From assembly GCA_964658305.1 (NCBI GenBank), contig OZ210885.1, positions 25,358,001 through 25,422,000 of the forward strand: a stretch of 64,000 nt of DNA, given 5' to 3'. Source of the stretch: Leptogorgia sarmentosa (lineage: Eukaryota). How positions within the stretch are numbered: the stretch's first letter is position 1; each line of letters begins with the position of its first letter. Below the pieces are notes generated by a model. The model was not told the DNA's origin and did not search any database. It saw nothing but the letters and a program-made list of their open reading frames with translations. The translations under genes were made by a program, and so were the position numbers. This document shows, one piece after another, positions 3,727 to 63,220 of the stretch.

Positions 3727-4391
3727 CATAGGTAGCCCAACGCACCCATGACATAACATCCAGTAGTATAATATGATAAGGTTGGCAATTAAACAATAAT
3801 ATGACTCGCTACCGCTTAAAACAAAGCGAAAAAATCAACCTTTTGCGAACAAACTTCGCTAAAAAATAGCAGCCACTACTTCTAGGATAGTATTACTAAA
3901 TATATACAACGTTTTTTGGCAACAAAACGTGTGAAAAAGTCGAAAAAATACGAAAAGTTTCTCTTAATTTGCCGTGTCTCGATGCTGGATGCCTGTTGCC
4001 GTGCAAAAATTGCCGTTTGAAATAACGAATACGCGATCCTATTGGTGGGCTATTTTGTCGGTTTACTCATAACCAATAGGATCGCGTATTCGTCATTTCA
4101 AACGGTAATTTTTGCATGGCAACAGGCATCCAGCATCGAGACACGGCAAATTAAGAGAAACTTTTTGTATTTTTTCGACTTTTTCACACGTTTTGTTGCC
4201 AAAAAACGTTGTACATATTTAGTAATATTATCCTAGAATTAGGGGCTGCTATTTTTTAGCGAAGTTTGTTCGCAAGAGGTTGATTTTTTCGCCTTGTTTT
4301 AAGCGGTAGCGAGTCATATTATTGTTTACTTGCCAACCTTATCATATTACACTACTGAATGTTACGTCATGCGTGCGTTGGGCTACCTATG
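3727..4391. mobile_element. Fold-back MITE, probably P superfamily
   Basis: Near-perfect 665-bp palindrome with ends CATAGGTAGCCCAACGCAC...GTGCGTTGGGCTACCTATG. 7-bp TSD ATGTCCT at 3720-3726 and 4392-4398. Confidence 0.85.
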
Positions 4392-5675: not shown

Positions 5676-6261
5676 CAGGGTGTCTCAAAAAAAAGGTAAT
5701 CGAACTTTGGCATGCCATTGTGCGTTTATTACTGGGTGTACGAACGTGATTTTTGCATGGTCATAAAGATCAAGGTCTTAGCAGTTGAATGACATATTTC
5801 TTGTACGATATGGAAGAAAATCAGGCAAATGCGAGCGTGTTGAAAAATCTCAGTGAAAAACGCATTCTTTCACCTCTGTGCCTAATTAAAGCAGTGCATA
5901 ACAAAAGAAAAATGCAATTCATCACGAATGTGTCATGGTAAGAAAGATTTTATCAGGATTATTAATAATTATGCATAATCAGGTCGATTGTTGAAGGGAA
6001 GGTCGTCATCTTCGAGTCCCAGAGGGAGTTAATTTTGAATAAGTTTAGCTGCAATTCTCAGAGGTGAAAGAATGCGTTTTTCACCGAGATTTTTCAACAC
6101 GCTCGCATTTGCCTGATTTTCTTCCATATCGTACAAGAAATATGTCATTCAACTGCCAAGACCTTGATCTTTATGACCATGCAAAAATCACGTTCGTACA
6201 CCCAGTAATTAACGCACAATGGCATGCCAAAGTTGGATTACCTTTTTTTTGAGACACCCTG
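5676..6261. mobile_element. Tc1/mariner-type MITE
   Basis: ~200-bp TIRs starting CAGGGTGTCTCAAAAAAAAGGTAATC, flanked by TA on both sides. Confidence 0.9.
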
Positions 6262-7486
6262 TACATCTGCGCCAAAGGTATTGGCAGCTGTAACTGGACC
6301 GTCAATACTAACATTCACTGATTTCTAACGATGTAAGGAAAGCAATAGAAGAAGCCAGTTTCAACCGAAGCCTGGTAGGAAACGACGGTAAAAATTAAAA
6401 TTGGCATCATAACCTACCGCCCTGAACATGGGGAATTAAAAGTTAGCAGAGGCTCTTCGACCAACCATACGGTCATTGTACCTCCTTCGTTTGGGACCAA
6501 TGAACTTATTCAGAAGGCAGTCAAAAAACACAGCCGGTTCAACAACAAATTGTCCGACCGACCCCAGGAATACCACCTCTTGTACCCAGATAAGACAAGG
6601 GTGGGTAAACTGCCAGGCACAGACCAGGATTTTACACTTGCACGGTTCAAAGAAGAACTCAGAAAGCCTTACGACAGGATCACATTAATATCATGCTATC
6701 TCACTTTTGTAGATTGTCGTTACAGTTTAAATTAGTATTGGAATGTAAATATTTATATTTGCATAATTTTCATGTCACTGACTCACCTTGCTATGAGATC
6801 TCGAGTCCTATGCATAATGGAGCATGTGGTTAGCCTGCATAGCGGGCGTTAGGCAGGTGCTCGAAGGGCGGGCTAAATATGAATTTTTCGAAATTTTCAT
6901 CCAAGTGGATACAGTAACACTGTGACACCGACCGAACAGCATGACACGAGTTCTTGAATGAATATTTTTGTCGAAGTTGAATGAATATTTTTGTTGAATA
7001 TGAATAAAACTTGAATGAATATTTTTGTTGAATATGAATAAATTTGTTAAAGTTGAACGAATATTGTTGTTGAATTTTGAAACAAATCGCTAACCATACC
7101 CCTTTGTTTACGATTTATTTGAAACAATAAATATCATTATAGAAATTTACAATTTGGATAATTTTTTTAGCTGGACATCTTAATATCCTCGTGAATATCT
7201 GTAGTAGCTTATGTTATATGTTACGGTGGCTCACAACACACAAAATATCAGAATAACACTAACAAATTAATAATAAAGCACACACAATAGGTAAACACAC
7301 ACACAATATGTAAACTCACACACAAAATATAAATACACACCTGCAAAAACTGAAAATACACACACAAAATATGAATGAAATATAAACAAATAATGCACAG
7401 GTTCTTGATATGCATGATATACAATGAAATAATGAAATTAGTAAAAGCTCTGATTTGACACTATTAAAACACTACACACGACATAC

Positions 7487-8162
7487 CTGAAAAGAATTCA
7501 CGCCTTGGCCCACCATCATCAATGGCAGGCTCTCTGATAAACACAACTGTTAACTTGTTTTGTGGAGAAAACCATGAGCACCTGGTACGCTTATTAAAAT
7601 AATCATCCAGCACACTCTTTCTTTGGACATATAATCGGTTCACTGACGTGCCAAGCTTTCCTTGAAGCCCAATTATAACATTACAACATGTTGTCACCTT
7701 TTTCTGGGTTTTCATTTTCCACAGCAAGCACTGACATTGCTTCGGAAGGTTCTTGTTCAATGCTATCATTGGAATATATGATGTCTGACATGAGGTTTAC
7801 ATAGTGCTGTTCAGAACCAGTCCACAATGATTCAGCACACATATCAGCATGCTCTTCAATCTCATGATTTGCAAACTTTTCATGACATGTGGGGCAGGAT
7901 ATACTTTTCATGACATGTGGGGCAGGATATACTTTTCATGACATGTGGGGCAGGATATCCTTTGGGATGCTGGAATTGTAGGTTGTGTTGACTCAACAGG
8001 TGTGGTCATCATGTTAACAGAAGAAATAGCATCGCTCTCTTCTCTGGTCGACACTGTGTTTGAAGACAGATGATGCATTGTGGTATTCATGATGGTACTG
8101 TCATCATCAGAATAATTTTCTTCACTCCACGTCTGTGTCTTCTGCCTCTGCAGAATTATCAT
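7487..8162 (-). pseudogene. Fragment of another HECT-type ligase gene with a UBZ-like zinc finger
   Basis: ISCPTCHEKFANHEIEEHADMC (C-x2-C-x11-H-x3-C) and KLTVVFIREPAIDDGGPRREFFS. Frameshifted, partly by a 28-bp unit repeated three times (7877-7958). Confidence 0.7.
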
Positions 8163-8825
8163 CTGAGTTAGTTTGGCTGAGCCTTGTAATTGCGCTCACG
8201 AGGTTGGACAAGCTCTGAAGATATCTACGAGCAGCCATATTTACATATTACAATCAAGGCGCACTTTCGCCAAATTTCTCGCGCCCTTCTCCCGCCAAAC
8301 TGTAAATTCGATAATACCGGGAAAAAATGTCGGTTTATATTTGGGAATCAGTTTCATCAGTGCATATATTAACGAAATAATCGTTTATATTTGAGACAAA
8401 TTGATTTATATTTACGGAGGTACTGTCATATATATTTTCACATTTGCTTTATATATTCTGAAAATATTTCTTTCATATAAGAAATCTCTTCATTTTTTTC
8501 AATTGATTTATATATAGTCGGCATTTCTTTAGTATATTTGTGTTGCTGTTTATATTTTTAGAGTTTCGTACAAATTACTTTATATGTTTCATATATGGGT
8601 GCTAATTAATTTTGTCCATCTTCACGCGTCATACTATGCCTTCATCATCCCAACATGAACCAGATTCTGCAATGTAAGACTATAACTACTACTTACAAGT
8701 CTCTTGACTACAGCAATACAAAACTGCATGCACAAACCGTAATTCTGGACTTGCTAATCTTGTTATATTTGTATATTTTTGCTGAATAGGTTTAACCAAA
8801 GCAGCATTCTTGACAAGGATAACTA

Positions 8826-10413
8826 AACTGTGTTTCTCACTTTATTGCAGATCATAATATTACATAAAGTACATAATACTTCAATAATAATAAACCGCAA
8901 AAGTTTGAAATTTTGCACACTGAAAGAGTACTCCTAAGTAGGTAAGCTATCAAAATATTTTGCAAATATATACTATATTTCTAAAGTAATAGAGATTTAT
9001 GTATTTGTTAGCTATTTTCACTGTTTCTCGCTTTATTGCAGGTTTGTGAAAATGCCCAAAAATCGACGTTTGACTGCAACTGAAAGGCAAAGGGTTGTAG
9101 CTGGCCTTGCAGAAGGATTTAGCCAAGGAACTGGGAAGGGATAAGAGAACCTTGGTTTCTTTTGTGGAGAAGCCCAACACTGCACCAAGGAAAGATAAGG
9201 GTACGAGAAGGAGCATTACCCCTCGTGATATGCGAAAAATACGCAGACAGATCATTAGGGAACCAAATGGCACTAGCGCCTCCATTTTCGCGAAAGCTGG
9301 CGTTGTTCCGATGTCCAGAAAGACCAGATGCAGTGTCTTGAATGAGATGGCCAGGAACGTGAAGCCCATTTCCAGGCCTCCCTTGAACAAAACGCATAAG
9401 GAAAAACGCATTGCGTGGGCAGAAAAGTACATGAAAACGGACTTCCAACAGGTTCTATTCACAGATGAAGCTAGAGCCACACTTGATGGTCCGGATGGAT
9501 GGGCTAAAGTTTGGAGTCCTACCGGAGCTGCTATCCCACATCGCGTTCGTCGTCAACAAGGTGGCGGGGGAGTTATGTTTTGGGCGGATATCATGGGTGA
9601 TAAATTAGTTGGACCTTTCCGAGTGCCAGAGGGTGTGAAACTCACCAGCCAAGCATACATATCGTTCTTGGATGAGCATTTGTCACCCTGGTTGGACGAC
9701 CTGCCTTTGCTTCGTCTACGTCAACTGATTTTTATGCACGACAATGCTCCCTCTCATGCAGCAAAGGCTACGACTTCCTTCCTCGCATCTCTGGGCATCA
9801 AGGGAGAGACTCTCATGACTTGGCCGCCTTGTTCTCCTGACTTAAACCCTATTGAGCAGCTCTGGTCAATTTTAAAGAGGGAGGTTTATGAAGGAGGACA
9901 ACAATTTACATCAAAAGATGCCCTCTGGAATAAAATTGTTTATGTGGCAAGTAGAATAACACCTTCCCAAATCAAAACATTGACTTCATCTGTTGATCGG
10001 AGACTGCAGAGGGTAATTTCAAGAAATGGGAGTTTTGTTGATAAATGATTTCCTTTAAATGGAAACATTTTGTGGTGCATATCTGGTGAATTCTTCCTTA
10101 CATTTCATTGATGTCATATTGTTACTTATGATTTAAATTATTAAAATAATTCACCCTGCTAAGTTGAATTATGGTTTTATTACCTATGAACTGTATTTTC
10201 ACAAATCTGCAATAGAGCGAGAAACAGTGAAAATGGCTAACAAATACATAAATGTCTATTACTTTAGAAATATAGTATATATTTGCAAAATATTTTGATA
10301 GCTTACCTACTTAGTAGTACTCTTTCAAGTGTGCAAAATTTCAAACTTGTGCGGTTTTTATTATTGAAGTAATTAATAATATTATGATCTGCAATAAAGC
10401 GAGAAACACAGTT
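8826..10413 (+). mobile_element. Tc1-like transposon, DD37E (TRT-like), IR/DR-type long TIRs
   Basis: TA at 8824-8825 and 10414-10415. TIRs of ~210-225 bp (8826-9050, ~10200-10413) each carry an outer and an inner copy of TGTTTCTC(A/G)CTTTATTGCAG. Confidence 0.92.
9052..10048 (+). pseudogene. DD37E Tc1 transposase with one N-terminal frameshift
   Basis: FTDEARATLDGPDGW, RRQQGGGGVMFW and HDNAPSH...WPPCSPDLNPIE, with 37 residues between the second D and E. The ATG at 9052 (MPKNRRLTATERQRVVAGLAEG) is out of frame with ORF 9107-10048. Confidence 0.88.
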
Positions 10414-11458
10414 TAGGTTGATATAGGTTGTACATTGCATATACATATCTGGGTTGAATATAATGTTTATGTTTCTAATGTTTGACGAAGTGAGTGAATT
10501 TTCAATTGTCAACTTGTACTGTACATATTATTTAGATCATATGTCAGCATCTTGGTAGAATCTGACGAGGATGATTTAATTGAACCACCCAACCTGTTTT
10601 TGCAAACAGAAGAAAGGGATGCAAGGTTAAATATTAATTTCTCTCCTTTAGCATAAGTAAATATTAATGCTTAATAATTTATATATGTGTATACACTTGC
10701 CACATGCCAAGACCTGTCCAGAGTATGAAAATATAGCAGCTATGTTGCATAATACTAATAAAGATTTCACTGAAAGAACCTGATTACTAATTATATTTTC
10801 AGTGAGGCTGACTATGATACTGAAGGAAGAAGAAACCTAATAAATGTTCGACAAAGCCATTGCTGGAAGGATGCACTCAATAAATTGTCAAGGCCAGATT
10901 TCATTTCTGAAAGGAATTTAAGTGTTAAATTTGCAGATACCATGGGTGCTTCAGAATTGGCTGTTGATGTAGGTGGACCAACACTCAAATTTCTACGGCT
11001 CTCTGTTAAAGACATGTACTGTACCTCTGGTATGTTTGGCGGTTTAGACAAGCAGCTTGGTTTGGTCCCAAACTCGGAAGGTAATAATATAGCAGCTGTT
11101 GTTAAAGAAATTATACACAGCACTCATCCTTAGACATCCAGTTTTGTTACATATGTTGGTGGCAGTATATAGTATGTAGTACATCACACGAGGCAGATAA
11201 TTGCATCAGCTACCCCCTTGATATATTGCACAGTATTTATTGTCCATTTTCCATCACTTGTCAAATTTATTAATTCCTGCAACAATTTATTTCAAGCTCA
11301 TTCAAAGAGGCACTACTTTATGGCTGGTAAATTATTAGCTATATCACTGTGCAATGGAGGAGTTACAGGAAACTGCCTATCAAAGGCTGTTTTCCAATAC
11401 TTAGTGGATGGTGAAGAAACAGGCATTGTCAATGCAACAGTCGATGAAGTCCCTGACT

Positions 11459-16304: not shown

Positions 16305-17161
16305 CTTGCAAATTCTGATGACAACACATTTCCAGAAGCATTGCAAGGTGTATCATTGTATTTGGACCAGTGTGGGTATTCCAGGAGACAAGCATTGCAG
16401 AACAAAGAGCACATGGTTGAGACCGAGACAAAATATCAGTTAACAAGACAATACGGCAGAGGCATATGGTTAATGGCTTGCCTGTTCAATATGTGTTTTA
16501 CCTCAGATGTTGTTTCGATCCGGAGTGTATTCATCCAGTGTGCCAGAGTTGTGAGTCTGTCGATGACGTTTGGTATCCAAGTGGACCCCCCCTTGATTTT
16601 TTCCCTACACCCAGACCCGATCGAGAGCGCCCGTTCGGCAACCTCAGCTGCAAAGACTGCGATGGATTTTGTGCAGGCCACTATTTGAAACGAGACAAAC
16701 TTGAGAGTTCTGTTAACATTCCTTTCGAAACAACACCCCCTTCACAAGTGCTACTAAAAGTGTTCCAGGAAAGTAATGGTTTCCCCAGTGAAGACGTAAT
16801 TGCGACAACTGCAAGCAATGTTTTGCTTAAACCAGAAGAAGTCAGAATGTGGTTTAAACATCTCGAAGTCGTGCAAAATAACAGAAAGGAAGGAGCCAAG
16901 AAAGCTGCCGCTACAAGAAGGAGAAAATTTCAACCTGGAAAAGTTGATGACACTGCAAGCAAACAGCCATTGAGAGACTCTGATGGCGACGAACTGTGCA
17001 ATTCATGTGGCACATTTAATCCTTCTGAACTGCAAGATAATGACGACGACGGCTTTGGCTGGATAGCTTGCAGTAACTGCTTATTTTGGTACCATCAAAT
17101 CTGTGCTGGTTTACCGCGAATTCCAATATTTTGGTCATGTGACAGTTGCAAGAGTACATAG
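16305..17161 (+). pseudogene. C-terminal fragment of an uncharacterised, probably transposon-encoded protein with Cys-rich, homeodomain-like and PHD-finger segments
   Basis: ORF 16466-17161: YVFYLRCCFDPECIHPVC, FPSEDVIATTASNVLLKPEEVRMWFKH (homeodomain-like), and CNSC...WIACSNCLFWYHQIC...WSCDSC (PHD). Confidence 0.55.
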
Positions 17162-22130: not shown

Positions 22131-22221
22131 TTAAACTGACAAATTAAGATTCAACTTTTATGGTCAACTATAGCCTGCGTGGTGTGGTGTTAGGACTAGT
22201 TTATCTAGCATTTATTATAAG

Positions 22222-22351
22222 TAATAGCATGGTTTGAGGGAGATTAGTGATTAAATGGTCCCGTAACCCGAGGTAGGTTTGTGGAATTCCACAAAGCTAC
22301 CGAGGGTAAGGGACCATTTAATCATTAATCTCCTGAAAAGCCATGCTATTA
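22222..22351. repeat. 130-bp imperfect palindrome
   Basis: TAATAGCATGG...TGATTAAATGGTCCC...GTGGAATTCCAC...GGGACCATTTAATCA...CCATGCTATTA. Confidence 0.8.
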
Positions 22352-22792
22352 GTTTGTAATAGCATAGTTGACCGGGTTTGTTTTGTTTTTACTGGGTCAA
22401 TTACCAAGTGTTTTGTTGTTGTGTAGAATGTAATTACATGAAGTTGGGTAAATGCGGCATTGATGTCGTAAAAGCCTGTTCCCGAGGTCTGAAATTCGAT
22501 TTGCGACAGCCGAGCAGATGGAGGCCATCGTCTTTGAAGAGCCAACAGGCCATGAGGACACAATTGTGTATCTGTACCAATACCTCAACGAACTGGAGAA
22601 ATACGATTAAGGTATTGCAGTATAACTGTACTAAAAGTTCGCGTTTTCAATAGTCAAACTAGGTCCTAACAGTGTATTAAGATTAGGTGAAATAGTCATG
22701 GAAAATAACAAAAACGCATTTATTTGCAATTGGAGATACACTACATCACTGATGAGTATTTGTTCAATAATATGAACATTTCTGTTATGTAG

Positions 22793-23034
22793 GCAAACCT
22801 TCCATGACTGACCTTTGCTGTTTTTGGACAGCCATGAACAATTTACCACCCCGGAATGGTACTCTGCAGGTGAAATTCCAAGAGGATAACAGCCCTTTGC
22901 CTGTTGCTGAAACTTGTTTTTTTGCTATATCCCTCCCAACAGTCCATGAATCGTATGATGATTTCAAGAAATTTATGGACTTAGCTCTCACTCATGGTTC
23001 TCTGTGCATACATACATCATTCATAATTAGCTGA
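22793..23034 (+). pseudogene. Isolated terminal exon of a HECT ligase (C-lobe with catalytic Cys)
   Basis: DLCCFWTA...LPVAETCFFAISLPTVHESYDDFKKFMDLAL, collinear with 58099-58325. The AG acceptor at 22791-22792 has the same position and phase as in that copy. Confidence 0.8.
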
Positions 23035-23558
23035 GTGGTTAATAATTCAACTGCATTTGCACTATATAATATGGTTTTGTTATTTGCATCCAGTTTTAAC
23101 ATTTGGATGGACACGCCATCATTTCTGTACCATACTTATAAACTAGGAATATTCTTTGTCAACATCTAACAGTAACTTTGTTCTGGTTGCTTGGTCTTAG
23201 AGTTTGTGATTTATAAGATTTCAAAACAATTCAAACAAAATGCAGTAATAAATTTGTCGTGTTTCCACAAACAAAACCTATTATATTTTATCACCATGCA
23301 AACATACAAAGAACTTAATTCAAACAAACACAAGATTTCATTTTGTTTACATTGGAAGCCCTCAAGATTTGACTTGACCGCCTCTTTAAAAATAAGCCTG
23401 CACATAAATTCTGCACATAAAGATTATAAAGATTATACAATAATCCTGTTTATTGCATCCTGTTCATTTCGTTATGGCTTTTCCACCTTAATTAAATGAT
23501 GAATATTTATAATGAATATTTATATTAATATTAATGTTTATATTAATTCAATTCAAAT

Positions 23559-23898
23559 TTTATGTTAGCGTGCTATAAGGACCGAAGTTCGAAAAGGCCA
23601 CTGGGACAGAAGCACATGGAATATTTAGTTTTGGTTTATGCATGGTTCGTCGAAGAATATAGGTTAAATGTTAATGTTATTTAGTCTTGAACGCTCATGG
23701 GACGGTGAAAATTCGTTCGGAACAGATGTGAGTTAAGTCAGTCTCTTTCAAATGTTTTTATACCAATAATTTTGCATGCTACATAATTAACAATCCGTAT
23801 ATTTGTATTACAGTTTCAGATTGTTTGCTTAATAAATACTGAAATTCCAAGCGTTTTCCTGTCTACTCATCTATGACACTTCTAACCACATCGGTCCA
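23559..23898 (+). repeat. BEL 5' LTR (first ~23 bp missing)
   Basis: Matches 29079-29418; I see one mismatch (23597 G vs 29117 C). Confidence 0.93.
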
Positions 23899-23970
23899 CT
23901 ATCTGAAAATCTTTGTTGGTGTTTAATGCAACTCGCTGAATGTGGTTTGAAGCTGTGTGTACTGTAAACA

Positions 23971-26900
23971 ATGGAAAATGTGGATAAAGTCAAGAATGTG
24001 CGACGAGCAGCTAAAGGTACATTGACGAGGGCGATTAATGCATATAAGGAGTTGATAAGTTCTGGCCGTCCAGTGAATGAAGTTAATGAAGTGTTTCAAG
24101 GTTTGAAAGGTGCTTATAAAGCTCTGGAGGTCAAGCATGACGAGTATACAATGTTGTTAGATGATACGGACTTTGATGAAGCAGAAGAATGGATGCAAGC
24201 CTGCAGTCGTGAGTATACAAGTTGTTCTATGATGTTTAATGATTATGTGAATGCCAATGTTACTAAGAATGAGGAGCACGATGTTTTGGAACAGTCCGAA
24301 GTTAATAATGAAGAAACGAATGAGGACAGTGAGAACCATGAAATTCAGGGTCACAGTGAAGAGTCCGATACACCCGAGGAAGAACTAAACATTAGCAATG
24401 TATCAAAGAGTGCCAAATCGCCCAGCCCCTTTTCATTAAAGCATGAAAAGCCGAAGTTGCCAAAGTTCGATGGTGATGTGAGGCAATACTTTATCTTCAA
24501 GTCAGATTTTCAGCATGCTGTAGAAGCTCACTACACTGAAAGGGACACACTCACAATTCTTCGGTCGTGTCTCGGTGCACAGCCTGCCAAACTAATTGAG
24601 GGAATAAGCTCAGATTTGAAAACAGCATGGAAATACCTTGACCAAAACTATGGCAATCCAAGAGTAGTCTCAGACACGGTTACATCAGACTTAGAAAAGT
24701 TCAAAGCTTTGGGTATCGGTGAAGATGATCGCTTCTGTAATTTGGTGAACTTAGTTCGAAGATCCTACAACATCCTGAAGGAGGTCAAGAGAAAGCAAGA
24801 TATTGACAACACCCATGTCATTTCCCTCATAGAAAGAAAAATGACGGTGGATGATCTACGAGTATGGGCCCGGCACCTCAACAGCCAAAAGCTTGAACCA
24901 TCGATGGAGAATTTGCTGGAATGGATGGAGGAGGAGATGGCAGCACGAATTCTTTCCGGAGCTGCAATCAGAAAGAGTGGCTCAACTCGGCCAAAGGTGA
25001 ACGCTTTTGGCTCAAGGGATCCAAATTTTGGGGACACCAGGTCCAAAAGGTGTTATGTTTGCCAAGAAGACCATTATGTGGATGGATGCAAAAGGTTTAT
25101 AGAGATGAACCCCAGCGAAAGATGGAAAATTGTTAAGGAAAGAAGAGCATGTTTCTCTTGTTTGAAGAGAAGCAAGGATCATACGGTTGCTAACTGTACT
25201 CGAAAGAAGGAATGCAGTCAGACCGATACAAATGGTGTCTCATGTAAGAAGTACCACCACAAGCTCCTACACAGCAACAACGTTGAAGAACGACCATCTT
25301 CTCGCGTCCATTTCACCCAAGAAAATAGCAGTACCACCATATTGCCAATGGTAACCGGTTTCGTCAGCGGAAAGCACGGTGGTTTATCGGAAGCTAGCGT
25401 ATTCTACGACAGTGGTGCACAGATAAGTATGATCCGGAGATCATATGCAGAGTCGTTGGCGTTAGAAAGCAAGCCCATTAGTATCGTGATTACCAAGGTC
25501 GGAGGAACGGAGGAAGAGTTGACGACAAAGCTGTACAAGGTACCCGTACATAATTGCGAAGGTAAACGAGTCCAAGTCGTACAAGCTGTTGGTATAGAAC
25601 AGATTTCCGAGGATAGTCCTATTGAAAACGTAGATGCGATCTCAAGAACCCTAGATATTCCAGTTGATGCAGTCAAATGTAAGGCTGGTCCGGTAGATCT
25701 CCTAATTGGTGTAAACTATCCTCAATTCCATGCAGAAACAGAATCAATGGGAGTTTCGTCACCAGCATGTAAATGTCCGCAAGTTAAAATGTCGTTGCAA
25801 GAACAACGGGAATTGAAGATGATCGAGGAGTCGTGCGAACTCGCAGGAAAAAGATGGATCATGAACTATCCCTGGAAGAAGAACCCCGAACAATTGCCCA
25901 ACAATTACTCTCAAGTTCTAAAGAAATTGGAAAGCACGGAACGACGTCTGAACAAAGTACCTGAGCATGCCAAAAATTATGACGCACAAATGAAAGAAAT
26001 GGAAGATCGAAAGTTTTCACGAAAGGTGACCAAAGAAGAAATTGCGGAATGGAACAAGCCCGTCCATTATGTGTCTCATCATGCCGTAGTGCGACCAGAA
26101 AAAAAATCTACCCCAGTACGTATCGTTTTTAATAGTTCTGCAGCGTTCAAAGGCCACTGTTTGAATGATTATTGGTACAAGGGTCCGGACTTGCTCAACA
26201 GCCTGTTTGGTGTCATACTACGATTTCGGGAGAATGCAGTCGCTGTCGCAGGGGATATAGCGAAAATGTACCACATGGTTTCCATCCCACCCACCGACCA
26301 ACATGTCCACAGATTTCTTTTGCGGAATCTCGAAACGGAACGCGAGCCAGACACATACGTGAAAACAGTCCTCACATTCGGAGACCGACCTTCTCCTGCC
26401 ATGGCCACCGTTGCCTTGCGGAAAACTGCTGAGCTGAAGGAAGAAACAAAGCCGAAAGCTGCCAACGCCATCAAGAACAACACGTACGTCGATGACATCT
26501 GTGATTCTCAAACAGTGTCGAAGCAGCAAAGAAACTGACGAGCGATATTGACGAAGTGCTTGATGCCGGCGGATTTCATATCAAAGAGTGGATCTCGAAC
26601 GCACCGCTGAACGACGAAAGGCAGAAAGAAGAAGTAGTGCTTGGCCGGGATCCAGTAGAAGAAACCCAGAAGGTTCTTGGAACAGTCTGGCATCCTCAAG
26701 AAGACAAATTCTCATTCAAAGTGAACCTGGGAGACACGGATGGCACGAAGTTGACGAAGCGTATGATCCTGAGTAAGCTGTCTGGAATATTTGATCCTAT
26801 TGGAGGTGGAGTTGCTGTTCTAATCAAGTCGAAGATAGCAATGCAAGAGCTGTGGCAGCGAGGTTTAGGTAGGGATGACGACGTCCCATCAGATATTAGA

Positions 26901-29015
26901 ATGAAATGGACGGCATTGTTCAATGAAATGTCTGCATTAAATCAAGTCCAATTCGAACGATGTCTGACACCACTGAATGTAGCAAGCGATCCATGGTTAG
27001 TCATATTTTGCGATGCGTCTCGGTTAGCGTTTGGTGCTTGTGCGTATATCAGGTGGCAACTCAACAACGGGGAATTCAGTGTTAGATTCGTGGCAGATAA
27101 ATCTCGCGTGGCGCCGCTGAAAGAGCTCACGATTCCTCGACTCGAATTACAGTCTGCCGTTTTAGCAAGTCGTTTAGCCAAAACCATTCTCGAAGAAACA
27201 CGTCTGAAGATTGTACGAACTATCTTCTTCTCGGACAGTCGTGTCGTAATTGCATGGATCCAGGGTCAGCCGAGATCTTACAAGCCTTTCGTGTCCTGTC
27301 GAATAAGTGAGATTCAGTCAAATTCGGATCCAGGCGACTGGTTTCATTGTCCTACAAAAGCCAATGTGGCAGATGACTTGACTAAAGGTATCTCAGCGAG
27401 TGAAGTTAATGGCAGATAGTTTAACGGACCAGAGTTCCTACGGCTACCCGAAGATCAATGGCCTACAGAAACTGGTTTACCTGACAAAAAAGAAGTAGAA
27501 AGAGAAAGAAGACAAGTCCAAATTGCATGCCCTGTCGCTGTCTGTAGTCCAGTGTTGGATGTCAAAAGAATCTCGACGTGGAAACGAGTAATAAGAGTTA
27601 CGAGTTATGTCAGAAGATTTGTCCAGAATTTGCAGATCAAGTGTACTCGAAGCGAGGAAAATCGCCAGCCAGAACGAGGCCCCCTCACTCGGCAAGAACT
27701 GGAGTCGGGGGAAGAATACTGGATAAAGCAGATGCAGTCAAGCATCCTAACAAGATTAAAAAAGGGTGATTTCAAAGCTCTTTCCCCCTACACTGACGAC
27801 AAAGGTATTCTAAGAGTTGGAGGTCGCGTCGACACATCACTGGTATCTTATGACAACAGAAACCCTGCGCTCCTACCATATGGTCACTACCTGTCCACCC
27901 TCATCGTACGTGACGTCCATGACGTTAGTCATTCAGGCATTGTGGCGACAATCGCGAAAGTCTGTGTAAAGTATTGGATACTCAAGGCACACAAGATTGC
28001 TAAGGTTATCAAACAACGATGCGTCAAGTGTCGAAGAATTGCAGCCAAAGCTGAAACCCAACTTATGGCTGTGTTCCCACCATGCCGTTTACAGCCACAT
28101 ACGCCGCCGTTCCTGTATTCTTCAATGGACTACTTTGGACCCATCAAAGTGAAAGTGGGCAGAAATAAAACTGTTAAACACTATGGTGTAGTATTCACAT
28201 GTCTAAACACCAGAGCGATTCATTGTGAACTTGCAGTCGATGCCAGCGCAATGGAGCTTCTACAAGTCCTGAGAAGATTCTTTTCGTATCGTGGCTTTCC
28301 GAAACTTCTTCTGTCTGATAATGGTACGCAAATGGTGGGAGCGGATAACGAACTGAAACTCATGATTCAAGGATGGGACGAAAGACAGCTAAAGGAATTT
28401 TGCGCAAACCGTCAGATTGAATGGAAGTTCATCACTCCCTTAGCTCCGCATCAGAACGGATGCTCCGAAGCAATGGTAAAGAGTATAAAGTACGCTCTGA
28501 AGAAAGCAATTGGCGACGCCGTACTAACACCGTTTGAGTTGTATACATGCCTATTTGAAGTCACGAACTTAGTCAATCAATGGCCAATAGGAAGAGTGCC
28601 AACAGATCCGGACGATGGAAGCTACCTGTGTCCAAACGATATCCTGTTGGGCAGAGCCACTAATACTATCCCTCAAGGCCTGTTCAGAGAAACCCGAAAC
28701 CCGCGCCACCGCTTTGAGTTTTGCCAGAAAATTGTTGATGCCTTTTGGAAGAAATGGTCGAGGGATGTTTTGCCACAGCTTACCCCAAGGAGAAAATGGA
28801 ACACCCAGCGTCGAAATGTGAAGGTTAACGACTTCGTTATTGTGTCAGACTCAAACGCCGTACGGGGCAAATGGAACACCGGAAGGATCGTAGAAGTTTT
28901 CCCAGGAGATGACAACTTAGTGAGAAATGTGAAAGTGAGAACGGCTACGGGAACCTACAGCCGCCCAATCAGCAAGATCTGTGTCATTTACCCGGCAGAA
29001 GGCTATGACGATTGA
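23971..29015 (+). pseudogene. BEL/Pao gag-pol polyprotein, broken into three ORFs
   Basis: LPKFDGD (DUF1759-like), three Cys/His knuckles, YDSGAQ protease, GDIAKMY..TYVDD RT, FCDAS..TIPRLEL Pao RNase H, and MDYFGP..SDNGTQ..NGCSE integrase. Frameshift near 26520, TAG at 27417-27419 and another frameshift before 27552. Confidence 0.92.
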
Positions 29016-29055
29016 CAATGTAGATAAATGGGAATTCTCCCATTGTGGCGGGGAA

Positions 29056-29418
29056 TGGTTTAATGTAAATAGTTGTACTTTATGTTAGCGTGCTATAAGG
29101 ACCGAAGTTCGAAAAGCCCACTGGGACAGAAGCACATGGAATATTTAGTTTTGGTTTATGCATGGTTCGTCGAAGAATATAGGTTAAATGTTAATGTTAT
29201 TTAGTCTTGAACGCTCATGGGACGGTGAAAATTCGTTCGGAACAGATGTGAGTTAAGTCAGTCTCTTTCAAATGTTTTTATACCAATAATTTTGCATGCT
29301 ACATAATTAACAATCCGTATATTTGTATTACAGTTTCAGATTGTTTGCTTAATAAATACTGAAATTCCAAGCGTTTTCCTGTCTACTCATCTATGACACT
29401 TCTAACCACATCGGTCCA
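29056..29418 (+). repeat. BEL 3' LTR
   Basis: TGG...CCA ends, follows GGCGGGGAA, and matches the 5' LTR. Confidence 0.9.
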
Positions 29419-31478
29419 TCTGACTTTGGTTGCACCTGATAACAATTAACCCTATGGTACAAGAATTTTAGTGCTAAATACACTGATAATCTAAATATCT
29501 ACTGTAGCCAAAGTCTGTTGATATAATTTGAATTATTTCCCAAATTATTTTTGTTCTGTATCAATTGTATTTGGATGTAATTAATTTTCATATCTAAAAA
29601 TACCTTATCAGTTTATGGTTTCCATCAATATGCCACAAACTTAGGGGGCTGTGAACTTTATATTTTCTCCTCCTTACAGCTTTGGCCCAACGGTCCATCA
29701 TACCAATGGGATCAGTCCTTATTAATGAATCCCTTATCCTGTCATGTTGCACCCGATGTCCTTTGCCCATAAGAAAGCCCTTTGTCAAGCGAATGCCAAG
29801 TTAGGATTCCTATTCTGTGCTTCCCTTACAAGTAGATCAAGCTGCTCATTACTAATGATGCTATAAGTAGCTGTAAAATTCAAGGGGGAAAATATATAAA
29901 TTATGGAAAAAACATAAATTAATTAGTGAAAATTATAGCAATAATTTGTGTGTAAAATATTTTAAAAACTAGGGAAACAATGCATTAAATTATAACAAAA
30001 TATTAAAATGGATAGTTGGTGTACATCATCACTGATATACAGTGACATAGTTGTGTTGTGTGCCATTTTCCACATATAATTGTGATATAATATTATGTAC
30101 TGGTACTTTAGCACATGTAGATTTATTAATCTACAGAACTGGACGAATAGACAATATTTTGTGGAAAATGGTTTATACATAACTTACCAGTAACACTTAA
30201 GCCAAATGATTGCATCCTACGTTCCAATGTTCTTTTGCCAACCCCCAACATGTTGCTCATTTCATTCACATTAAAAGCCTGCTCCAACAAAAAGTTTACT
30301 TGCTCTTCATTTATATCAAACGAAGGTTTTCCATGCCTGCCAGTATATATTTTTCTCTTTTTCTTTATATATATTTTTTCTGGAGGCAGGGGCGGATCAA
30401 GCTTGCGCGGGGCCCCTGGCACAAAGGTCACTGGGGCACTTGGCTGATTCCCCCCCCCCCCCGAAAAAGACTATGCATATAAAGATATCAGAGAAATTTT
30501 ATAACCAAAATAGTACTATTTACAAACAACGTTTCTGCAAAATATTTTACAAAAAAGGAACTTTTCGAGCCTTTGCAGAAGCAAAATCATTTGCCAGCTT
30601 TGAGAAGTCAAGCGAACGTAAAATGTCCGATTTCATACTCATCCGTGATAGAGCACTTAAGCGTGTTTGTCCCATCGTGCTACACGAAACGCTCTTTACG
30701 CGTTTTAGTTTCGAGAACGAGCGCTCCCCTGTGCAATTACTGACCGTCATGGTGAGATAGATCCTGAACGCAATTTCCACATTCGTGAAGGTTTCACTTA
30801 ATTCATTATTTTTGAGATTGAGGAACATCAATAGTTCAATGGACCTCTTCTTGTCTTCTTTTTACTTGACTCTGTGACGATTTCTATCGTCGACGTGGGA
30901 GTTACCGTCCCTAATTACACGAGACAGTAAAATGAAATATATCACAATAAACATAAAAGTTTAATACTATAACTACCTAAGTATAAATTAAATTGTCTAC
31001 AGTCGTTTCAACAAACCCGAGTTCACAGAGTGTACATCTTCTTTCTTCGGCTAGCCACAATACTTGCTTCCACGCGTAGTTTCTAACCCGAGACTCCTTG
31101 TTCAACGACAACCGTCAGGATTTCCTTCAGTAATTCTATTCAATTTCCAATTAATGGCCTCAGCAACTTTAACCTGGGCCAAGTTGGATAAATAACCCCG
31201 TCGCTTCTCTACTCCGACTTGTAATATAGTCTTCTCAATCTCTTTCGACAACGCCTTCAAGATTTCGTTCAGTAGTTTTACTCAGGGTTCGAGGTTAATT
31301 ACCTCAGCGACTATTTACGCTTCGTCACCTTTACTCAGTAATAACAACTTTACTTTTATTATTAGTCTTCTCGAGAGGAGTTACACTCTAACACTGCGTG
31401 ACCGAGTGTAAAGCATTTTATGTCTAAACTACATGATTAAATACACAGAACAACTATTAGGAGGCGGGCATCTCGTGT

Positions 31479-32735
31479 TTATGCCCGCCTTCTTCGACGC
31501 ACCAAGAAAGCTGAGTCGTGCTGCAAAGTATTTTTATTGTCACTTAAACAAATATACATCAACAATATCCAATTATCATGGAGGGCCTTCGATACTGACA
31601 ATAGGGAGTGCAAGTTATCTTTTACATAACCGTCCTTGGCTTTGTCCAATTTCCATCTCCCGTGACGTTTAAACAGGCGATCCCTAACGCCAGCGTTCGC
31701 TGCAGCCGTCGCACCACCGCTCCTTAGGCTATGTAGGCCGATATTCTTTACTGGATAACCAAGAGATGTAAAAGCTGCAAGAACTATCTCTCTGGCTCGA
31801 GAGTAAGAAAGCCCTGTGGAACGTAAAACGTACTTCTTTTTGGATTTACAGAAGTAAACCGACCTGAATAATGGTGCTGTAGAACTCAAGTCTATACTCG
31901 CTCCTTTAACATATCGAGACAGAATCGAAAAAGGACACGCCACATCCTTGGTTTCTGCCATCAGGACTGTATTCCCATGGTGATAAATGTCAGTCTTACT
32001 TTGCGTTATGCTCAAGGCGACAAAACGCTCGCCCTCAGCCGAAACGAAATTAACGTCGCAGCAACGCAAACTTGCCAGCTCATTAAAACGTAAGAATGCA
32101 TAGAAACCCACCACAAACAGTGCTGCAAGTCGCAGATCGGAAAGATTCGAATTTTCTGTCGCGTACTTTTCGCAAAGCTCGGTAAGCATCTGCAGGGTTA
32201 TTGGATCCTTCTTCCGAATTGGCTTTGCGAGTTTCCTTTTCGCAGCCTCCAACAAATTTCTTACGAACCCGGATCCGCACGGATTTGGGAACCCGTACAT
32301 GCTGTGTGCCCAATTTATACTGTAAAATGCGCTTTCCAGTTTTGAATAGGGACTGTTATTCTCAAGAAGATATTCTAGGTACAATCCTACGGTGCTTGAG
32401 TTTGCTGGTAACGCCGTTAACTGCCTGTATCTGGCTGTCCAAGTCTTAAACATCCCGAACCCTCTGGAATACTTAACGGTGCTGGGAACTTTAGCCTCAA
32501 TCAACCGCTTGGTCATATTGGCGGCAAGACACTGCAAATTTGCATCACACACATTTTTTGTCACGCTTGAAAGAAAAATTTTCCCCTGTAAATTTAAAAA
32601 TAAAAGAACAGTAAGCACGGCATTCAAAAGCTTAATCACGCTGGCAAATGAGCCTGTGCGTCTACAGCAAAATGAGCACTGGACTATTAAATTCGTCAGA
32701 ACCAAATAAGGACAACTTGTTGAGTCCGTGCTCAA
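31479..32735 (-). CDS. Tyrosine recombinase (true start probably near 32590-32520)
   Basis: Catalytic set present: FLRFNE (R), QSKTD (K), LHSLRSGGAT (HxxR), HGRW, DGY (Y). Confidence 0.9.
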   Translation of the reverse strand: MSTDSTSCPYLVLTNLIVQCSFCCRRTGSFASVIKLLNAVLTVLLFLNLQGKIFLSSVTKNVCDANLQCLAANMTKRLIEAKVPSTVKYSRGFGMFKTWTARYRQLTALPANSSTVGLYLEYLLENNSPYSKLESAFYSINWAHSMYGFPNPCGSGFVRNLLEAAKRKLAKPIRKKDPITLQMLTELCEKYATENSNLSDLRLAALFVVGFYAFLRFNELASLRCCDVNFVSAEGERFVALSITQSKTDIYHHGNTVLMAETKDVACPFSILSRYVKGASIDLSSTAPLFRSVYFCKSKKKYVLRSTGLSYSRAREIVLAAFTSLGYPVKNIGLHSLRSGGATAAANAGVRDRLFKRHGRWKLDKAKDGYVKDNLHSLLSVSKALHDNWILLMYICLSDNKNTLQHDSAFLVRRRRRA

Positions 32736-34551
32736 ACACGTCCTTCCCGTCTTCTATATAAACATAGTCTGCTACGAAATCCCGAAAATTCCCGTCGCTG
32801 GTGGTAAGAAAAGGCCAAAATACGGCTGAAGGCCAGAATGGTACAGTCAACATGGCACGACACCCGGAGAAGCAAACATGCTTCACAGCCTTTGGGATTA
32901 ATTTTATGGGAGGAACCAGCCAACAAAATTCACCAAACCAGTTATAAGCAAAACAGTCAGTCCCTAATGAAAAAGGGGTAAACCATTTTGAATAAAATCT
33001 CCTTGTTTTGGCATTCTGACCGCTAGCGAGACAATCGATCGAACAGATGCCCCACTGGGCCTGAGCTAATTGGAAGTATTTTCCTTTAACGCACCAGTCG
33101 TCAGGATCTATGATCTTACTAAGATAATCCGCTGTGTCGTTAAGATCCCGTGGGATCCATTCAATATCAACCTCAATGTTATTATCTTTAGCGTGATAAA
33201 AAATATCCAGCGCGAGCTGATGCAAAGGTAATTTCATGCTGCCCGAATTAACGATCGACACAACAGCTTGGTTGTCGGTATACCATTTCACGCTATGGTT
33301 TCGTAAACTGGGAGCAAGGCTCCTTAACGCGTCTCTAATACACAACAGTTCTCTCCAGGTGGAGCTTTGTTTCCTTTCCAACTCATTCCAATTCCTGTGA
33401 AAAACTGGGGCATCGTCTAGGGATATAAATGCGGCGCAACCTGTGTCGCTTGCATCTGAGCACATGACCCGTGTGAATAAGGAGGGTGTCGGTTGTAGGG
33501 CACGAGAGTTTAGTTTTCCAGCAGAATTTTCCCAGAATGTGAGTTCCCTAATCGATTCCGCATTTAATGTCAAAAACGAATCCCAACTGCGTCTGGAATT
33601 AATCTGGGCATGGAGGGATCTGGTCATAAGTTTGCATGTCACACCAAACACCGTTAAGTTCGAGATAATTAAGCCCGTCACTGAAGCCAGCTGCCTGGCT
33701 TTCACCCTCCGCAGGGCTAGCGTTTTCGTAACAGTCTCTGACACTTTGAGGATTTTACTCAGGGGAACTGAAAGGGTCTGCAATTTTAAATTCCAGTCTA
33801 AACCAAGCCAAGTTAAACATTGAGTGGGAATCCAATTACACTTCTCTACACTGGCGACAAAGCCACTACTTTCGATATCGGCTCTCACACGGGATGCTTG
33901 CGTCAAACAAGACGAAAACGACTGCGAAGCGCCTAAACCGTCATCCAAATACACTACTATTTTGTATGCCATAGCTCGCCAGTGCCTAACCAATGGTCTC
34001 ACCACTTTGGTAAAAATGTAAGGAGCAGTGGCTAAGCCGAAAGGCAATACGGTGAATTTGTAATATTTGATGCCGCTTTTCACCTCCCATGAAAAACCTA
34101 AGAACTGCTGATCAGCCGGGAAAATATCGATATGATGATAAGCTGACTTAATGTCAAATGAAAACAAAAAATTTTGTTGGCTGTCTTGTAATGTAGTTAT
34201 CATTTCCTGTACCCCCTCGAATCGAAACTTAATTTTTTTCAGGAAACTGTTTGGGTAACGAAGATCTAAAATCAGCCTCTTCTTGCCGGATGACTGAATG
34301 GCGACCGATAAGGGGTTCACCACCGTGGGTGGTGACGAGCACTGCGCAATCGCTCCGGCTATAAATAGGTCTCTTACCGCGCTGTCCACAAACACACGAT
34401 TTTCAAAGGCTGATCTATTATTCCGAAAACACATCTGTGGTGGCGTAGTAAGGAGAGGAATGATATACCCTCTCGAAATGGTATCAACGACGAACTGGGA
34501 GGCGCCAATGTCCTTCCAGAACTGTACATGAGCGCGTAATCGCCCTTTCAC
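32662..34551 (-). CDS. Reverse transcriptase / RNase H / adenine-methyltransferase-like polyprotein
   Basis: RLILDLR, FDIKSAYHH, LPFGLATAP, YLDD; SDASDTG, STWREL, YTDNQ, ADYLS; C-terminal IDCLAS..NAK..RFYS..DCF..NW..WLVPP..VPFWPS. Uninterrupted 629-aa ORF. Confidence 0.93.
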   Translation of the reverse strand: MKGRLRAHVQFWKDIGASQFVVDTISRGYIIPLLTTPPQMCFRNNRSAFENRVFVDSAVRDLFIAGAIAQCSSPPTVVNPLSVAIQSSGKKRLILDLRYPNSFLKKIKFRFEGVQEMITTLQDSQQNFLFSFDIKSAYHHIDIFPADQQFLGFSWEVKSGIKYYKFTVLPFGLATAPYIFTKVVRPLVRHWRAMAYKIVVYLDDGLGASQSFSSCLTQASRVRADIESSGFVASVEKCNWIPTQCLTWLGLDWNLKLQTLSVPLSKILKVSETVTKTLALRRVKARQLASVTGLIISNLTVFGVTCKLMTRSLHAQINSRRSWDSFLTLNAESIRELTFWENSAGKLNSRALQPTPSLFTRVMCSDASDTGCAAFISLDDAPVFHRNWNELERKQSSTWRELLCIRDALRSLAPSLRNHSVKWYTDNQAVVSIVNSGSMKLPLHQLALDIFYHAKDNNIEVDIEWIPRDLNDTADYLSKIIDPDDWCVKGKYFQLAQAQWGICSIDCLASGQNAKTRRFYSKWFTPFSLGTDCFAYNWFGEFCWLVPPIKLIPKAVKHVCFSGCRAMLTVPFWPSAVFWPFLTTSDGNFRDFVADYVYIEDGKDVFEHGLNKLSLFGSDEFNSPVLILL

Positions 34552-34639
34552 GCTTGGGCACTCTGAGCTCTCTACATATGAGAGTAAGAGCTTTCTATAG
34601 CATGCTCGGCAGTCTCTACGTTATCAGATAAAACACACA

Positions 34640-35358
34640 AATTTGAATACTTATCTTCAGTCATCCTGGTGGCCGCAGCTATATGCTTCGGATTCATAGA
34701 GAAATCAGTTCTGCGAGGCAGGTGTGCACGAACTGCCGTGTGTCGCTACCCCGTCTGTTGGAGCAGATAGCTGAACTGGCCCGGTGGCCGTTCAAACCAC
34801 AGCTGAAGCATTTGCTCTTAACTTCTTTTCGTCATCTGAATCCTCTGCGAGGTCATCGGACTGATATTCGTCTACGGCTGACCAGCCTGCAGGGCTTTTG
34901 TCGGCAAATCTGATCAGCTTGTTTCTCTTCTCTACCAGCGACTTCTGCGTTTCTATCTCTTTTGTTGCTGCTGCCAAATCCCCTTTCAATATGTGCTTCA
35001 GTGTCGACTCCAAGCTGTCTATAGCCCCAACGTTGAATTCGTACTGTATCTTATTTCCCCTGAATTTGAAGGAACTGGCGGCTTTCGATTCCGTTTTCAG
35101 CTTCTTTATCCGAGAGGCGTTCGCATCATCTTTTTCTTCGATGCTACGCTTGAAACTGGCCAACTTGCGATCCAGTTTGCTGTCGAGAATCTGAGCGAAA
35201 TGCTCAAACAACTGTTCAGCATTGCCGCTTGCCGTCGCCATCGTATGTGAGGCAGCGGGTATTGGCTGACTGGTGATTTGGGCAGAAGCAGAGCTAGGAG
35301 TTGCGACCTCACTATCGCTCGCTAAAAGGAAACTTTCTTGGTCTAAATCCAACGCCAT
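34640..35358 (-). pseudogene. gag-like ORF1 of the DIRS-like element
   Basis: FKFRGNKIQYEFN, RNKLIRFADKSPAGWSAVDEYQSDDLAEDSDDEKKL, followed after a frameshift by the knuckle CFSCGLNGHRASSAIC. Confidence 0.8.
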
Positions 35359-38321
35359 GCAAGTAAAAAAATTCAACCGCTTGAGTTGAGGAGATGCCTT
35401 CGAATGCTGAAAATCACTTACCACACCCTTAAATACTTGCGTATTGTCCCTTATAATCCTCTCCTATTGTTCCTTTACAATGCCATACATGCACAGGCAT
35501 TCGACCATTACGTACCGCCACAAAATACATTTGTATTCAGCTTTATCGCTCCCAACGATACCCAACTCCCCCTTCGATATAACTTAATTCTTATTCAAAC
35601 TTTGTGACCTCTTCTTTCTTTACTTATCTGGTCTCACACCGTCTCTTCGAACCCCGTGCTCGGCTTATATATCCCACCATTAACATACTAATTATCATAT
35701 AACCTATTACATTATTATTAACCTACTAATTATCATATAATCTATCACATTATTAACATAATAATAATACAGCTATTTTTTCCATCACACGTTCTCACCA
35801 AAGATCATATTACAACTGTAATTGATCACATGCTGAAAAAAAAACCCAACAATGCACATGCACTAGCCACACCCCCAAACCGGTCGGAGAGGAGCAACCA
35901 GACGAAAATTCCCCTAGGCAGGGAAGGTTCCAGCACCTCAAAACTGGACTCTATTCACTTCTGCTTAACGCATCTGCATCCACATTCTTTTCCCCTGCCT
36001 TATGCTCATACTCTATCTCGTACTCCTGAAGAGTTAAACTCCATCGCAGCAACTTACGATTTTTATTTTTTTCTTGGTTTAGCCAAACCAGAGGGTTATG
36101 ATCCGTTTGCAATTTAAACTTTCTACCAAAAAGGTAATAACGGAAGGTTTCCACAGCCTGGACAATTGCCAAACATTCTTTCTCAACCGTTGCTAAATTT
36201 AACTCCCGTGGTTGTAATTTTCTACTTGCAAATGCAATGGGATTTTCTTCATTAATCTCATCTAACTGAGTCAAAATCGCCCCCATACCATACCCCGACG
36301 CATCCGTTTTTACAATAAACTCACGTTCCCAACAAGGAGGCCGCAAAACTGGAGGAGATGTTAATTTTTTTTTAATTGGGAAAAAGCATTTTGTGCTCGA
36401 TTGGTCCAGACCACTCTAGTGGGTTCGGATTTTTTAGTTAAATCAGTAAGAGGTGCGGCAATATCCGCAAAATTTCGAATAAAGCGACGATAATATCCGG
36501 CCAGACCAAGAAATGAACGAACTTGTTTCTTCGTTTGAGGCCTCGGAAATTGTAATATCGTTTCAATAAGTGCCTCTCTAGGGGTGACGGTACCTCCCCC
36601 TACCCTATATCCGATAAAATCTACCACAGACATAGCAATTTTGCATTTTGACAGCTTTGCGGATAATCGTGCTTGCCGTAGCCTACCAAACACTTGCCGC
36701 AGATGATTTAAATGCTGCTCAAAAGTTGTTGAGGTGTCAATTTCCACATCATCGATGTAGGCATCCACAAAAGACTTTAACCTATTTAACACTTTATGTT
36801 TCATCATACGTTGAAAGGTTGCTGGCGCAGTTTTCATACCAAAAGGCATAACAGTAAATTCAAATAACCCCTGGGAAGTTATAAAAGCAGATTTCGGGAT
36901 AGAATTCTCATTTAACGGGATTTGCCAATACCCCTTAGTTATATCCAAGGTCGATATATACCTAGCTTGGGCTACTTTTTCTAACATTTGATCCACACAA
37001 GGAATTGGATATGCATTGGAGAGGCTTCCAGCATTTGTAGGCCCTTTCCCACATGCCCCGCCAGCGTCACGAACCGTATTTGTTGTTCGCGCGCAAGGCA
37101 TACTTGCTGCACTTGCACGTCTAGATATTTAACACATACTCATAGCGGAGCTGGGCCTGCTACACAGGCTAATAGATCAATCACCCGCGACCGTCACAAC
37201 ACTAACAAAATTGGCTTCGGGAAGCGCGGGGCCCCTCAAAGCGCGGGGCCCCTGGCACCTGCCCATACTGCCCCCCCCCTTGATCCGGCACTGTCTGGAG
37301 GCATTAAAACGTAGCTTGCATTGATGTAATGCCTGGTAGGCCGTGTCTACCAACTCAAATGTCCTGTCATCGATACCAACATTGACAAAATATCTCCTAA
37401 GTATGTCAAGCCTTAACGTTATGCCCCCAAAACAATCTGGGTCATTTAAAGAATCTAACCTGTATATTAGGTCTTCAACAGTGTTTAAGGCAGTAACTAG
37501 ATCAGCAGTTTCAATCGGTCCTACTGTATCCCCTCCCGACACCATATTTGTCTATCATTGAGGAGACGGCATTGGAGGTCTGGACATGAATGAATTTGGC
37601 AGGGGGTTGTCTTGTGTTAGCTTAATTCATATTGGCGGAGATTTGACGCTATCGTTGAACTCCGCCAATATTCAACATGTGATGATTTTTTTTTCAACAT
37701 ATTTTTAACGTTGAAGTTGCGATGGGTGCAAAATTCGCGGCATGTTCAATGCCGGTTTAACTTCAATGTCGAAAGCACATAGGTACTAAATGTCCTATTT
37801 TACTTCAATGTCGAAAATATGTTGAATGTTCTGCATGTTCAGTGTCAGATTTATCTTTTGCGAATGATGATCGACCAGAGGCCAAAAAACGAAGGAAGAA
37901 ATGGGTCGATTTTGTTCGAAGAAGGCGATTAAACTTTGAACCGTCTGCCTCTTCAAAGATATGTTCCAGGCATTTTAATGCAGGAGATTTTACTCGGCGT
38001 TTCAGTGTTCGCTTGACTTGGCGATAAAGCGAAATTGAAAGCCATACTAAAGAGCGACGAATTCGGGATTTGTGTATATCCAACCATTTCTTTGCCAGAT
38101 TGCCAGGAAACGAAACTTTTGTCCGCAAGGGAAAAACGTCATTCTGTAAGTATTGAATTTAGTTATTATTTTGTTTTACTGTTCTCGATAATCGCTGTTA
38201 CCACTTTAGTAAACAGTTGAGAGCGTGAAAATACGTATAAGTTTAAAATACAAGTTTGTAATGCGTAGGAATTGTTAAATCTTTGACAGGTACTAACGGC
38301 GAAACGATCGAAAAGCGACCA

Positions 38322-54326: not shown

Positions 54327-54674
54327 TATGACGTTATATATCCGCCAAAATTCAAGTTCTTATTTGACATGCCAGTTTTTGTATTTTACATAATGGTCAA
54401 AATATTTATATTCGACATTTAACATTTTTTAATTCGACATTCGACATTTTTAAATTCGACATTCAACTTTCTTAAATTCGACATTCAACTTTCTTAAATT
54501 CGACATTCAACTTTTTTAAATTCGACATTCAACATTTTTTGAATTCGACATTCAACTTTCTTAAATTCGACATTCAACATTTTTAAATTCGACATTCAAC
54601 TATCTTAAATTCGACATTCAACATTCGAAAATCCAACCGCAATCCAATTCTAACTATGTAACGCTGGCTCAAAT
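54327..54674 (+). repeat. Left TIR with ~22-bp tandem subrepeats (AAATTCGACATTCAACTTTCTT)
   Basis: Reverse complement of 63221-63583. Confidence 0.95.
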
Positions 54675-54788
54675 TGAGACGGAGGGCAGGCCACTGGGGC
54701 AGGCTAACAAGAGCGTGGCTACACTGAAACCACAAAATTATACTATTATTTTTTTGATATTAGAAAGCAATGTTAAATTGAATACAAA

Positions 54789-57373: not shown

Positions 57374-57630
57374 ATTGCAAATATGAAATATTGTAAACAA
57401 ATAGGGTCATCTTACAAAACTTTAACTTGTAACTACTGTAAGAAAGAGCAAGCTCTCATAAGGTTAAAGTGCACCTGACCCCAACATTTTTAGTTGTCTT
57501 AAGGCCTGTTCATGTGATCCAATTTTGTCAAATTCAATTGTGTTGGGTCCAATAATTAATCGCATGAACACCCTTATATTTTGTCGGATCCACTATTTTT
57601 GTTCCAGTGAACGTGCAAGGAAATTTACCT

Positions 57631-63192: not shown

Positions 63193-63220
63193 TACCGCAA
63201 ATTTGCAAACACGTGCGTCT

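Follow-up and report, generated by a model that had tools for sequence, protein, structure and literature searches.

The region from 22793 to 37545 of the window (the whole 64-kb stretch of DNA that was analysed) is, in all probability, a decayed element of the IS3EU/GingerRoot type in which an integrase gene and a HECT gene likely belong together, the latter likely having encoded a functional ubiquitin ligase in the service of the element's transposition. The copy itself is dead, since its DDE core is deleted and its remaining exons contain frameshifts and one stop. The following features were distinguished in and around it, with an intact relative in the same window as reference.

22199-22444, no strand assigned: palindromic small insert (MITE-like), directly 5' of, or within, the penultimate HECT exon; self-inverted at 22219-22354
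~22443-22611, plus strand: recognisable part of the penultimate HECT exon; contains a stop codon (22608-22610) and, near 22470, a frameshift; followed by a donor of phase 1 at 22612
22793-23034, plus strand: HECT terminal exon (C-lobe, AETCF); acceptor ending at 22792
23035-23505, no strand assigned: spacer separating the convergent genes; an 89-nt insert occupies 23228-23316
23506-23558, no strand assigned: AT-rich stretch of 53 nt at the deletion break, not common to other family copies
23559-29418, plus strand: LTR retrotransposon (BEL/Pao) situated in intron 2 of the integrase; LTRs at 23559-23898 (5') and 29056-29418 (3')
29604-29870, minus strand: integrase exon 2; 267 nt versus 268 in the intact element, i.e., one frameshift
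30188-30378, minus strand: second piece of integrase exon 1, covering the HTH region, similar to the intact integrase
30387-37293, minus strand: hAT remnant splitting integrase exon 1; 8-bp target duplication 30379-30386 / 37294-37301
31381-35530: DIRS-like element inside the hAT remnant; joint 31380 to 35531 in contigs
37294-37545, minus strand: integrase exon 1, first piece; identity of 34% with the intact element (32 aa) and of 33% with L003/L004 (87 aa)
37600-38143, minus strand: subterminal repeats together with an unrelated one (~37856-38103); candidate end of the terminal repeat at 38143
54327-63583, no strand assigned: intact IS3EU-type element with long TIRs and TA..TA ends; integrase on the plus strand, convergent HECT gene on the minus strand

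As stated in the preliminary description, a HECT terminal exon on the plus strand (22793-23034) faces integrase exons on the minus strand (37545-29604), and both are real: the former scores 29.5 bits against Pfam HECT (E 7.8e-7, cut-off 23.9), the latter 26.8 bits against rva_4 (cut-off 26). The terminal exon shares 43.7% identity over 71 aa with its counterpart in the intact element. Its AETCF motif, described before as kept, is indeed present, and the Cys of this motif is presumably the catalytic one. In the alignment to AREL1 (6jx5), AETCF pairs with AHTCF (E 6.4e-4); by this alignment and the Pfam score, the decayed copy possesses a C-lobe with its cysteine. The penultimate HECT exon, which had been overlooked, is 47% identical to P0145 over 45 aa, while a direct alignment to the corresponding exon of the intact element was attempted and none was obtained. 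N-lobe exons matching this HECT copy are absent from its neighbourhood; an N-lobe is present in the intact element as well as in L004 and L009, and its loss is a property of the decayed copy, not of the family. The N-lobe exons at 10516-11458 were considered as the 5' half of the decayed gene and rejected with moderate confidence: they find no match in the clade that contains the terminal exon, and their sole similarity is a weak one to L039 (32%, E 1e-5).

Contigs of 4 of the 24 listed runs (X1, X2, X8, and X15) were aligned to the region. Runs were picked by the HECT stretch, and those containing it include some labelled coral metagenome. The stop at 22608-22610 is missing from the contigs of X1, X2, and X8, and the small palindromic insert is skipped, with joints from 22198 to 22445 in X1 and from 22214 to 22445 in X8. 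Similarly, family contigs align to 23503-23505 and bypass the 23228-23316 insert in the spacer. On the integrase side, contigs of X1, X8, and X15 contain exon 1 in frame and without the hAT, passing from 30357 to 37295 with 15 other letters between, and the frameshift of exon 2 is missing in X8 and X15.

Both integrase exons 1 and 2 of the decayed copy are frameshifted; aligned stretches of 51 and 65 aa are 54.9% and 61.5% identical to the intact integrase, respectively. Exon 2 ends in LWHIDGNHKLIR, which bears the first catalytic Asp, the only one surviving, as compared to all three motifs in the intact element. Exons 3-5 are absent, with no match in similarity searches. Exon 1 yielded weak HTH matches and no match to the integrase zinc-binding domain, in agreement with the IS3EU traits described in PMC10045372, among them the lack of an HHCC motif before the core and an HTH-like N-terminal region. 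Judged from its sequence, the integrase is of the IS3EU/GingerRoot type, a known superfamily: rva_4 is above its cut-off, and the motifs match Repbase IS3EU cores, a comparison made by eye and without a tree. The candidate terminal end at 38143 has its first base changed, and neither a left end nor a partner TIR was found.

In the preliminary description three intron positions and phases were reported as identical between the decayed and the intact copy. All three do match, namely the phase-1 donor after GLSV(S/T)G, the phase-2 donor within KLIR and the phase-1 acceptor situated 10 codons ahead of FWT, but as evidence they are weaker than supposed. Since 60 of the 80 best loci (out of 356 relatives) contain it, the KLIR donor is a superfamily-wide marker and says little on this particular pair. 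The intron after GLSV(S/T)G, found in 8 of 38 testable loci, is the more specific marker. Of 25 loci, 14 have an AG at the offset of the terminal-exon acceptor; several of these are from one family, and some are implausible as acceptors. L007, L008, and L005 are close relatives that lack integrase introns present in the copies of the window, L008 reading through exons 2-5; this suggests intron loss or processed copies.

The inserts probably landed in integrase exon 1 and intron 2. Gypsy RT/RNase H pieces are nested in the hAT as well; neither these nor the DIRS-like element appeared in the earlier account. With 339 of 340 nt in agreement between the BEL LTRs, and the initial 23 nt of the 3' LTR having no counterpart in the 5' LTR, both the insertion and the later deletion are presumably recent. 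This deletion, after the arrival of the BEL element, would have taken ~1.5 kb, including exons 3-5, which encode two of the three catalytic residues, together with the start of the BEL 5' LTR. The earlier attribution of both losses to a single event holds insofar as exons 3-5 and the 23 nt are gone and one deletion is the likeliest reading, short of proof. Due to the 53 AT-rich letters at 23506-23558, the exact left break is uncertain. An X1 contig covers 23457-23588, the break 23558/23559 included, without differences; X1 may be the sample that gave the window.

The HECT and integrase halves at 22793-37545 are likely one element, as far as the contigs allow this to be judged. In X8, whose contigs are from another organism, depth is 226-293 on the HECT side and 276-293 on the integrase side, with no contig on 30660-33449; X15 repeats this pattern at a depth of 5-8, contig depth in both runs not being equal to copy number. 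That both runs hold both halves at similar depth and with ~97-98% identity argues against two adjacent elements of one clade, situated in the same orientation and fused by a larger deletion. The same applies to a 2,352-nt contig of X8, which extends 1,509 nt to the left of 29420, in good agreement with the 1,579 (~1,580) nt expected from the proportions of the intact element. Such a fusion of neighbours is improbable in our view, even if tandem elements exist (L054), further HECT remnants occur in the window (2107-3270, 7467-7796, and 10516-11458), and no contig bridging 23505 to 29420 was present among the aligned run contigs. It is this missing bridge, along with the 53 unshared nt at the break, that keeps the reading as one element with one deletion short of proof. 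Even in case of two elements, both halves would represent one multi-copy family.

Whether integrase and HECT genes are paired beyond the window was addressed in metagenomes, where the best 80 of 356 stretches encoding an integrase relative were scanned and 37 loci offered at least 4 kb downstream. A convergent C-lobe was found in 27 of these 37 loci with a first profile and a convergent HECT part in 29 with refined profiles. Since many loci stem from few assemblies, counting was also done by families at 90% identity, giving a convergent HECT part in 14 of 16. No HECT part lies on the integrase's strand in any of the 37 loci, an upstream match was observed in one of the 27 loci with 4 kb upstream, and the control with reversed ORFs gave no HECT match. 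TIR pairs (TA..TA) were seen in 12 of the 30 loci tested for ends, and seven of these 30 show perfect 6-bp duplications, all different, which enclose a HECT part in every case (7/7, 2 families). The full HMMER scan gave 93 HECT matches, where a word-index search with the terminal exon gave nothing; after dropping two long repetitive ones, the Cys of the catalytic column is kept in 90 of 91. In six HECT comparisons, pN is 0.27-0.37 and pS 0.75-0.88. Enclosure by TIRs and duplications, retention of the Cys, and pN below pS imply that the HECT gene is mobilised together with the element and subject to purifying selection. Viral contigs yielded no locus, and no accession in the cluster look-up joined an integrase match to a HECT match; among named relatives of the integrase, the best comes from a sea anemone.

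These counts uphold the proposal that the two-gene architecture is ancestral to a family rather than a one-off capture; at the level of sequence, the convergent layout is supported as ancestral and the ligase as a long-standing partner instead of a chance passenger. The decayed copy is, with this census, one more witness of a HECT gene that moves in IS3EU elements and is maintained by selection. A neutral, catalytically dead passenger, comparable to the human G2E3 HECT or to the fragments in clubmoss GingerRoots, is very improbable. HECTs of the G2E3 class are very divergent and the human one is reported as non-functional (PMC3673628), GingerRoots capture host fragments (PMC6839031), and 8 of the 37 loci, including the TIR-bounded L053, are without a HECT part. 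Opposed to this are the 14 families that keep the HECT part, its fixed orientation, the nearly invariant Cys and a protein that is conserved despite saturated synonymous sites.

Integrase and HECT trees were compared for 19 of 21 families, two being left out for short C-lobes. Congruence between them, proposed earlier as a check, is partial. Integrase and C-lobe identities are weakly correlated (Mantel test, rho 0.25, p 0.007, for 19 families that are not independent; rho 0.53, p 0.024 for the decayed copy), and both decayed halves cluster with the intact element, L004, L006, L007, and L009, on tree branches that are unstarred (94/99 and 88/90). In contrast, L018, L054, L058, and L068 (4 of 19 rows) are placed differently in the two trees, which suggests that their HECT part was exchanged. 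L018 is 0.74 identical to the intact element in the integrase and 0.25 in the C-lobe, and its N-terminal domain matches that of the intact element with 61% over 113 aa. An internal module swap is likely in this case, the integrase and the N-terminal domain being near the intact element and the HECT lobes of another type.

In live copies, the DDE enzyme would cut at the TIRs and insert with a 6-bp stagger, which is assumed because of the family and the duplications in relatives. The second protein is predicted to combine an N-terminal ubiquitin-like fold with a HECT domain including the catalytic Cys. This ubiquitin-like fold is a prediction from a model of the L040 N-terminal domain (pLDDT 78.7, 16-row alignment), for which SAP18, Ras-binding, RAWUL, and PB1 domains were the fold matches, the best with E 0.005 and none below 0.001; an atlas search with the domain returned unnamed eukaryotic clusters only. 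The ligase would bind the transposase complex and ubiquitinate the transposase or proteins bound to it. That it acts on the element's own transposition complex is an attractive possibility to which we give a little less than an even chance. The contigs of the RNA run X15 retain intron sequence and hence lend no support to splicing or expression.

The main rival is a host silencing factor as target: again with one element, the ligase would target a host protein involved in the silencing or restriction of transposons instead of the element's own transposase. We regard this as rather unlikely, though chromatin-complex domains are among the top fold matches, the catalytic part is exchanged between lineages, as L018 illustrates, and host-directed enzymes are described in other transposons, i.e., TET/JBP in fungal IS3EU (PMC12730594) and deubiquitinases in Helitrons (PMC9741609). 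No host substrate is known, however, and the conservation of the L018 N-terminal domain alongside the integrase fits a tie to the transposase, although retention of both ends of an element would look alike. Preferring action on the own transposition complex, it is tempting to speculate that the IS3EU elements of animals represent an ancient system of two genes, in which a transposase is accompanied by its dedicated HECT ligase, the latter with a targeting domain of the ubiquitin-like type and a catalytic part swapped between lineages; we hold this generalisation to be possible yet doubtful. If true, a transposon lineage with an E3 of its own would be shown for the first time, and many of the divergent HECT genes found in multiple copies in corals, sponges, and other animals would be explained. 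Among the divergent HECT genes of marine animals that annotations assign to the host, many may be cargo of transposons. An active ligase would allow a direct test of transposon use of the ubiquitin system. For experiments, the intact element is the best copy of the window, its integrase being open (469 aa) and its 6-bp flanks matching at 5 of 6 positions. It is inserted in a DIRS-like element, within the gag-like ORF of the latter, and the N-terminal domain of its HECT protein has a 99% match to an 11-member protein cluster.

The window is repeat-rich animal DNA; the coral metagenome runs and the sea-anemone relative point to a cnidarian, likely a coral. The region 5523-11458 contains an end-like motif at 5523 (plus strand), a 118-aa ORF at 6379-6732, and the HECT N-lobe exons at 10516-11458, and is interrupted by a Tc1 (~8823-10416) and by a hAT starting at 11459; possibly it is a third element with another HECT type. 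HECT N-lobe remnants were also observed at 2107-3270 and at 7467-8195 (minus strand), the former being closest to L018 and having a weak CUE match (E 0.0017, below the cut-off). ORFs at 16305-17158 (plus strand) are probably part of another transposon; they show a stretch rich in cysteine, a weak match to a homeodomain, and a PHD-like finger at the C-terminus, each below its Pfam cut-off. Long near-perfect inverted-repeat elements, MITE-like and with arms of 328 nt and 205 nt, are located at 3719-4399 and 5669-6263.

TIRs with TA..TA ends and 6-bp duplications are published IS3EU/GingerRoot traits, and corals are among the reported hosts (PMC10045372, PMC6839031). In line with these descriptions, the enzyme is an integrase-like DDE enzyme, and TA..TA ends and 6-bp duplications occur in the intact and other relatives; by eye, the first-Asp motif of the decayed copy equals that of IS3EU-1_CVi_1p letter for letter (supplement of PMC10045372). 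The decayed copy differs in lacking the catalytic core and in having a single candidate end (38143). The superfamily is known, and the family-wide ligase gene was not found in print: neither HECT nor ubiquitin occurs as a word in the main texts of PMC10045372 and PMC6839031, a search of published papers found no HECT cargo in IS3EU, and two HECT surveys, including PMC3673628, mention no transposon in their accessible text. Repbase IS3EU entry names ending in _2p exist (supplement of PMC10045372), which suggests that some records list two proteins and that a HECT cargo is possibly annotated there.

The class IV HECTs G2E3 and GL-Metazoa (PMC3673628) are likewise very divergent animal HECT domains, likened here by description. 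Helitrons with VTD and OTU deubiquitinases, of which the VTDs were shown to be active (PMC9741609), and Zisuptons with an F-box (PMC12062965) are transposons that similarly contain ubiquitin-pathway domains. Unlike the present elements, they belong to other superfamilies and involve other enzyme classes, HECT being absent from the accessible text of both articles. In case of the fungal IS3EU families (PMC12730594), a second gene lies opposite to the transposase as well, between TAY..RTA ends and with 6-bp duplications; there, in an article whose accessible text is without HECT, the families contain alpha-kinase and TET/JBP genes, whereas the cargo here is a HECT ligase.
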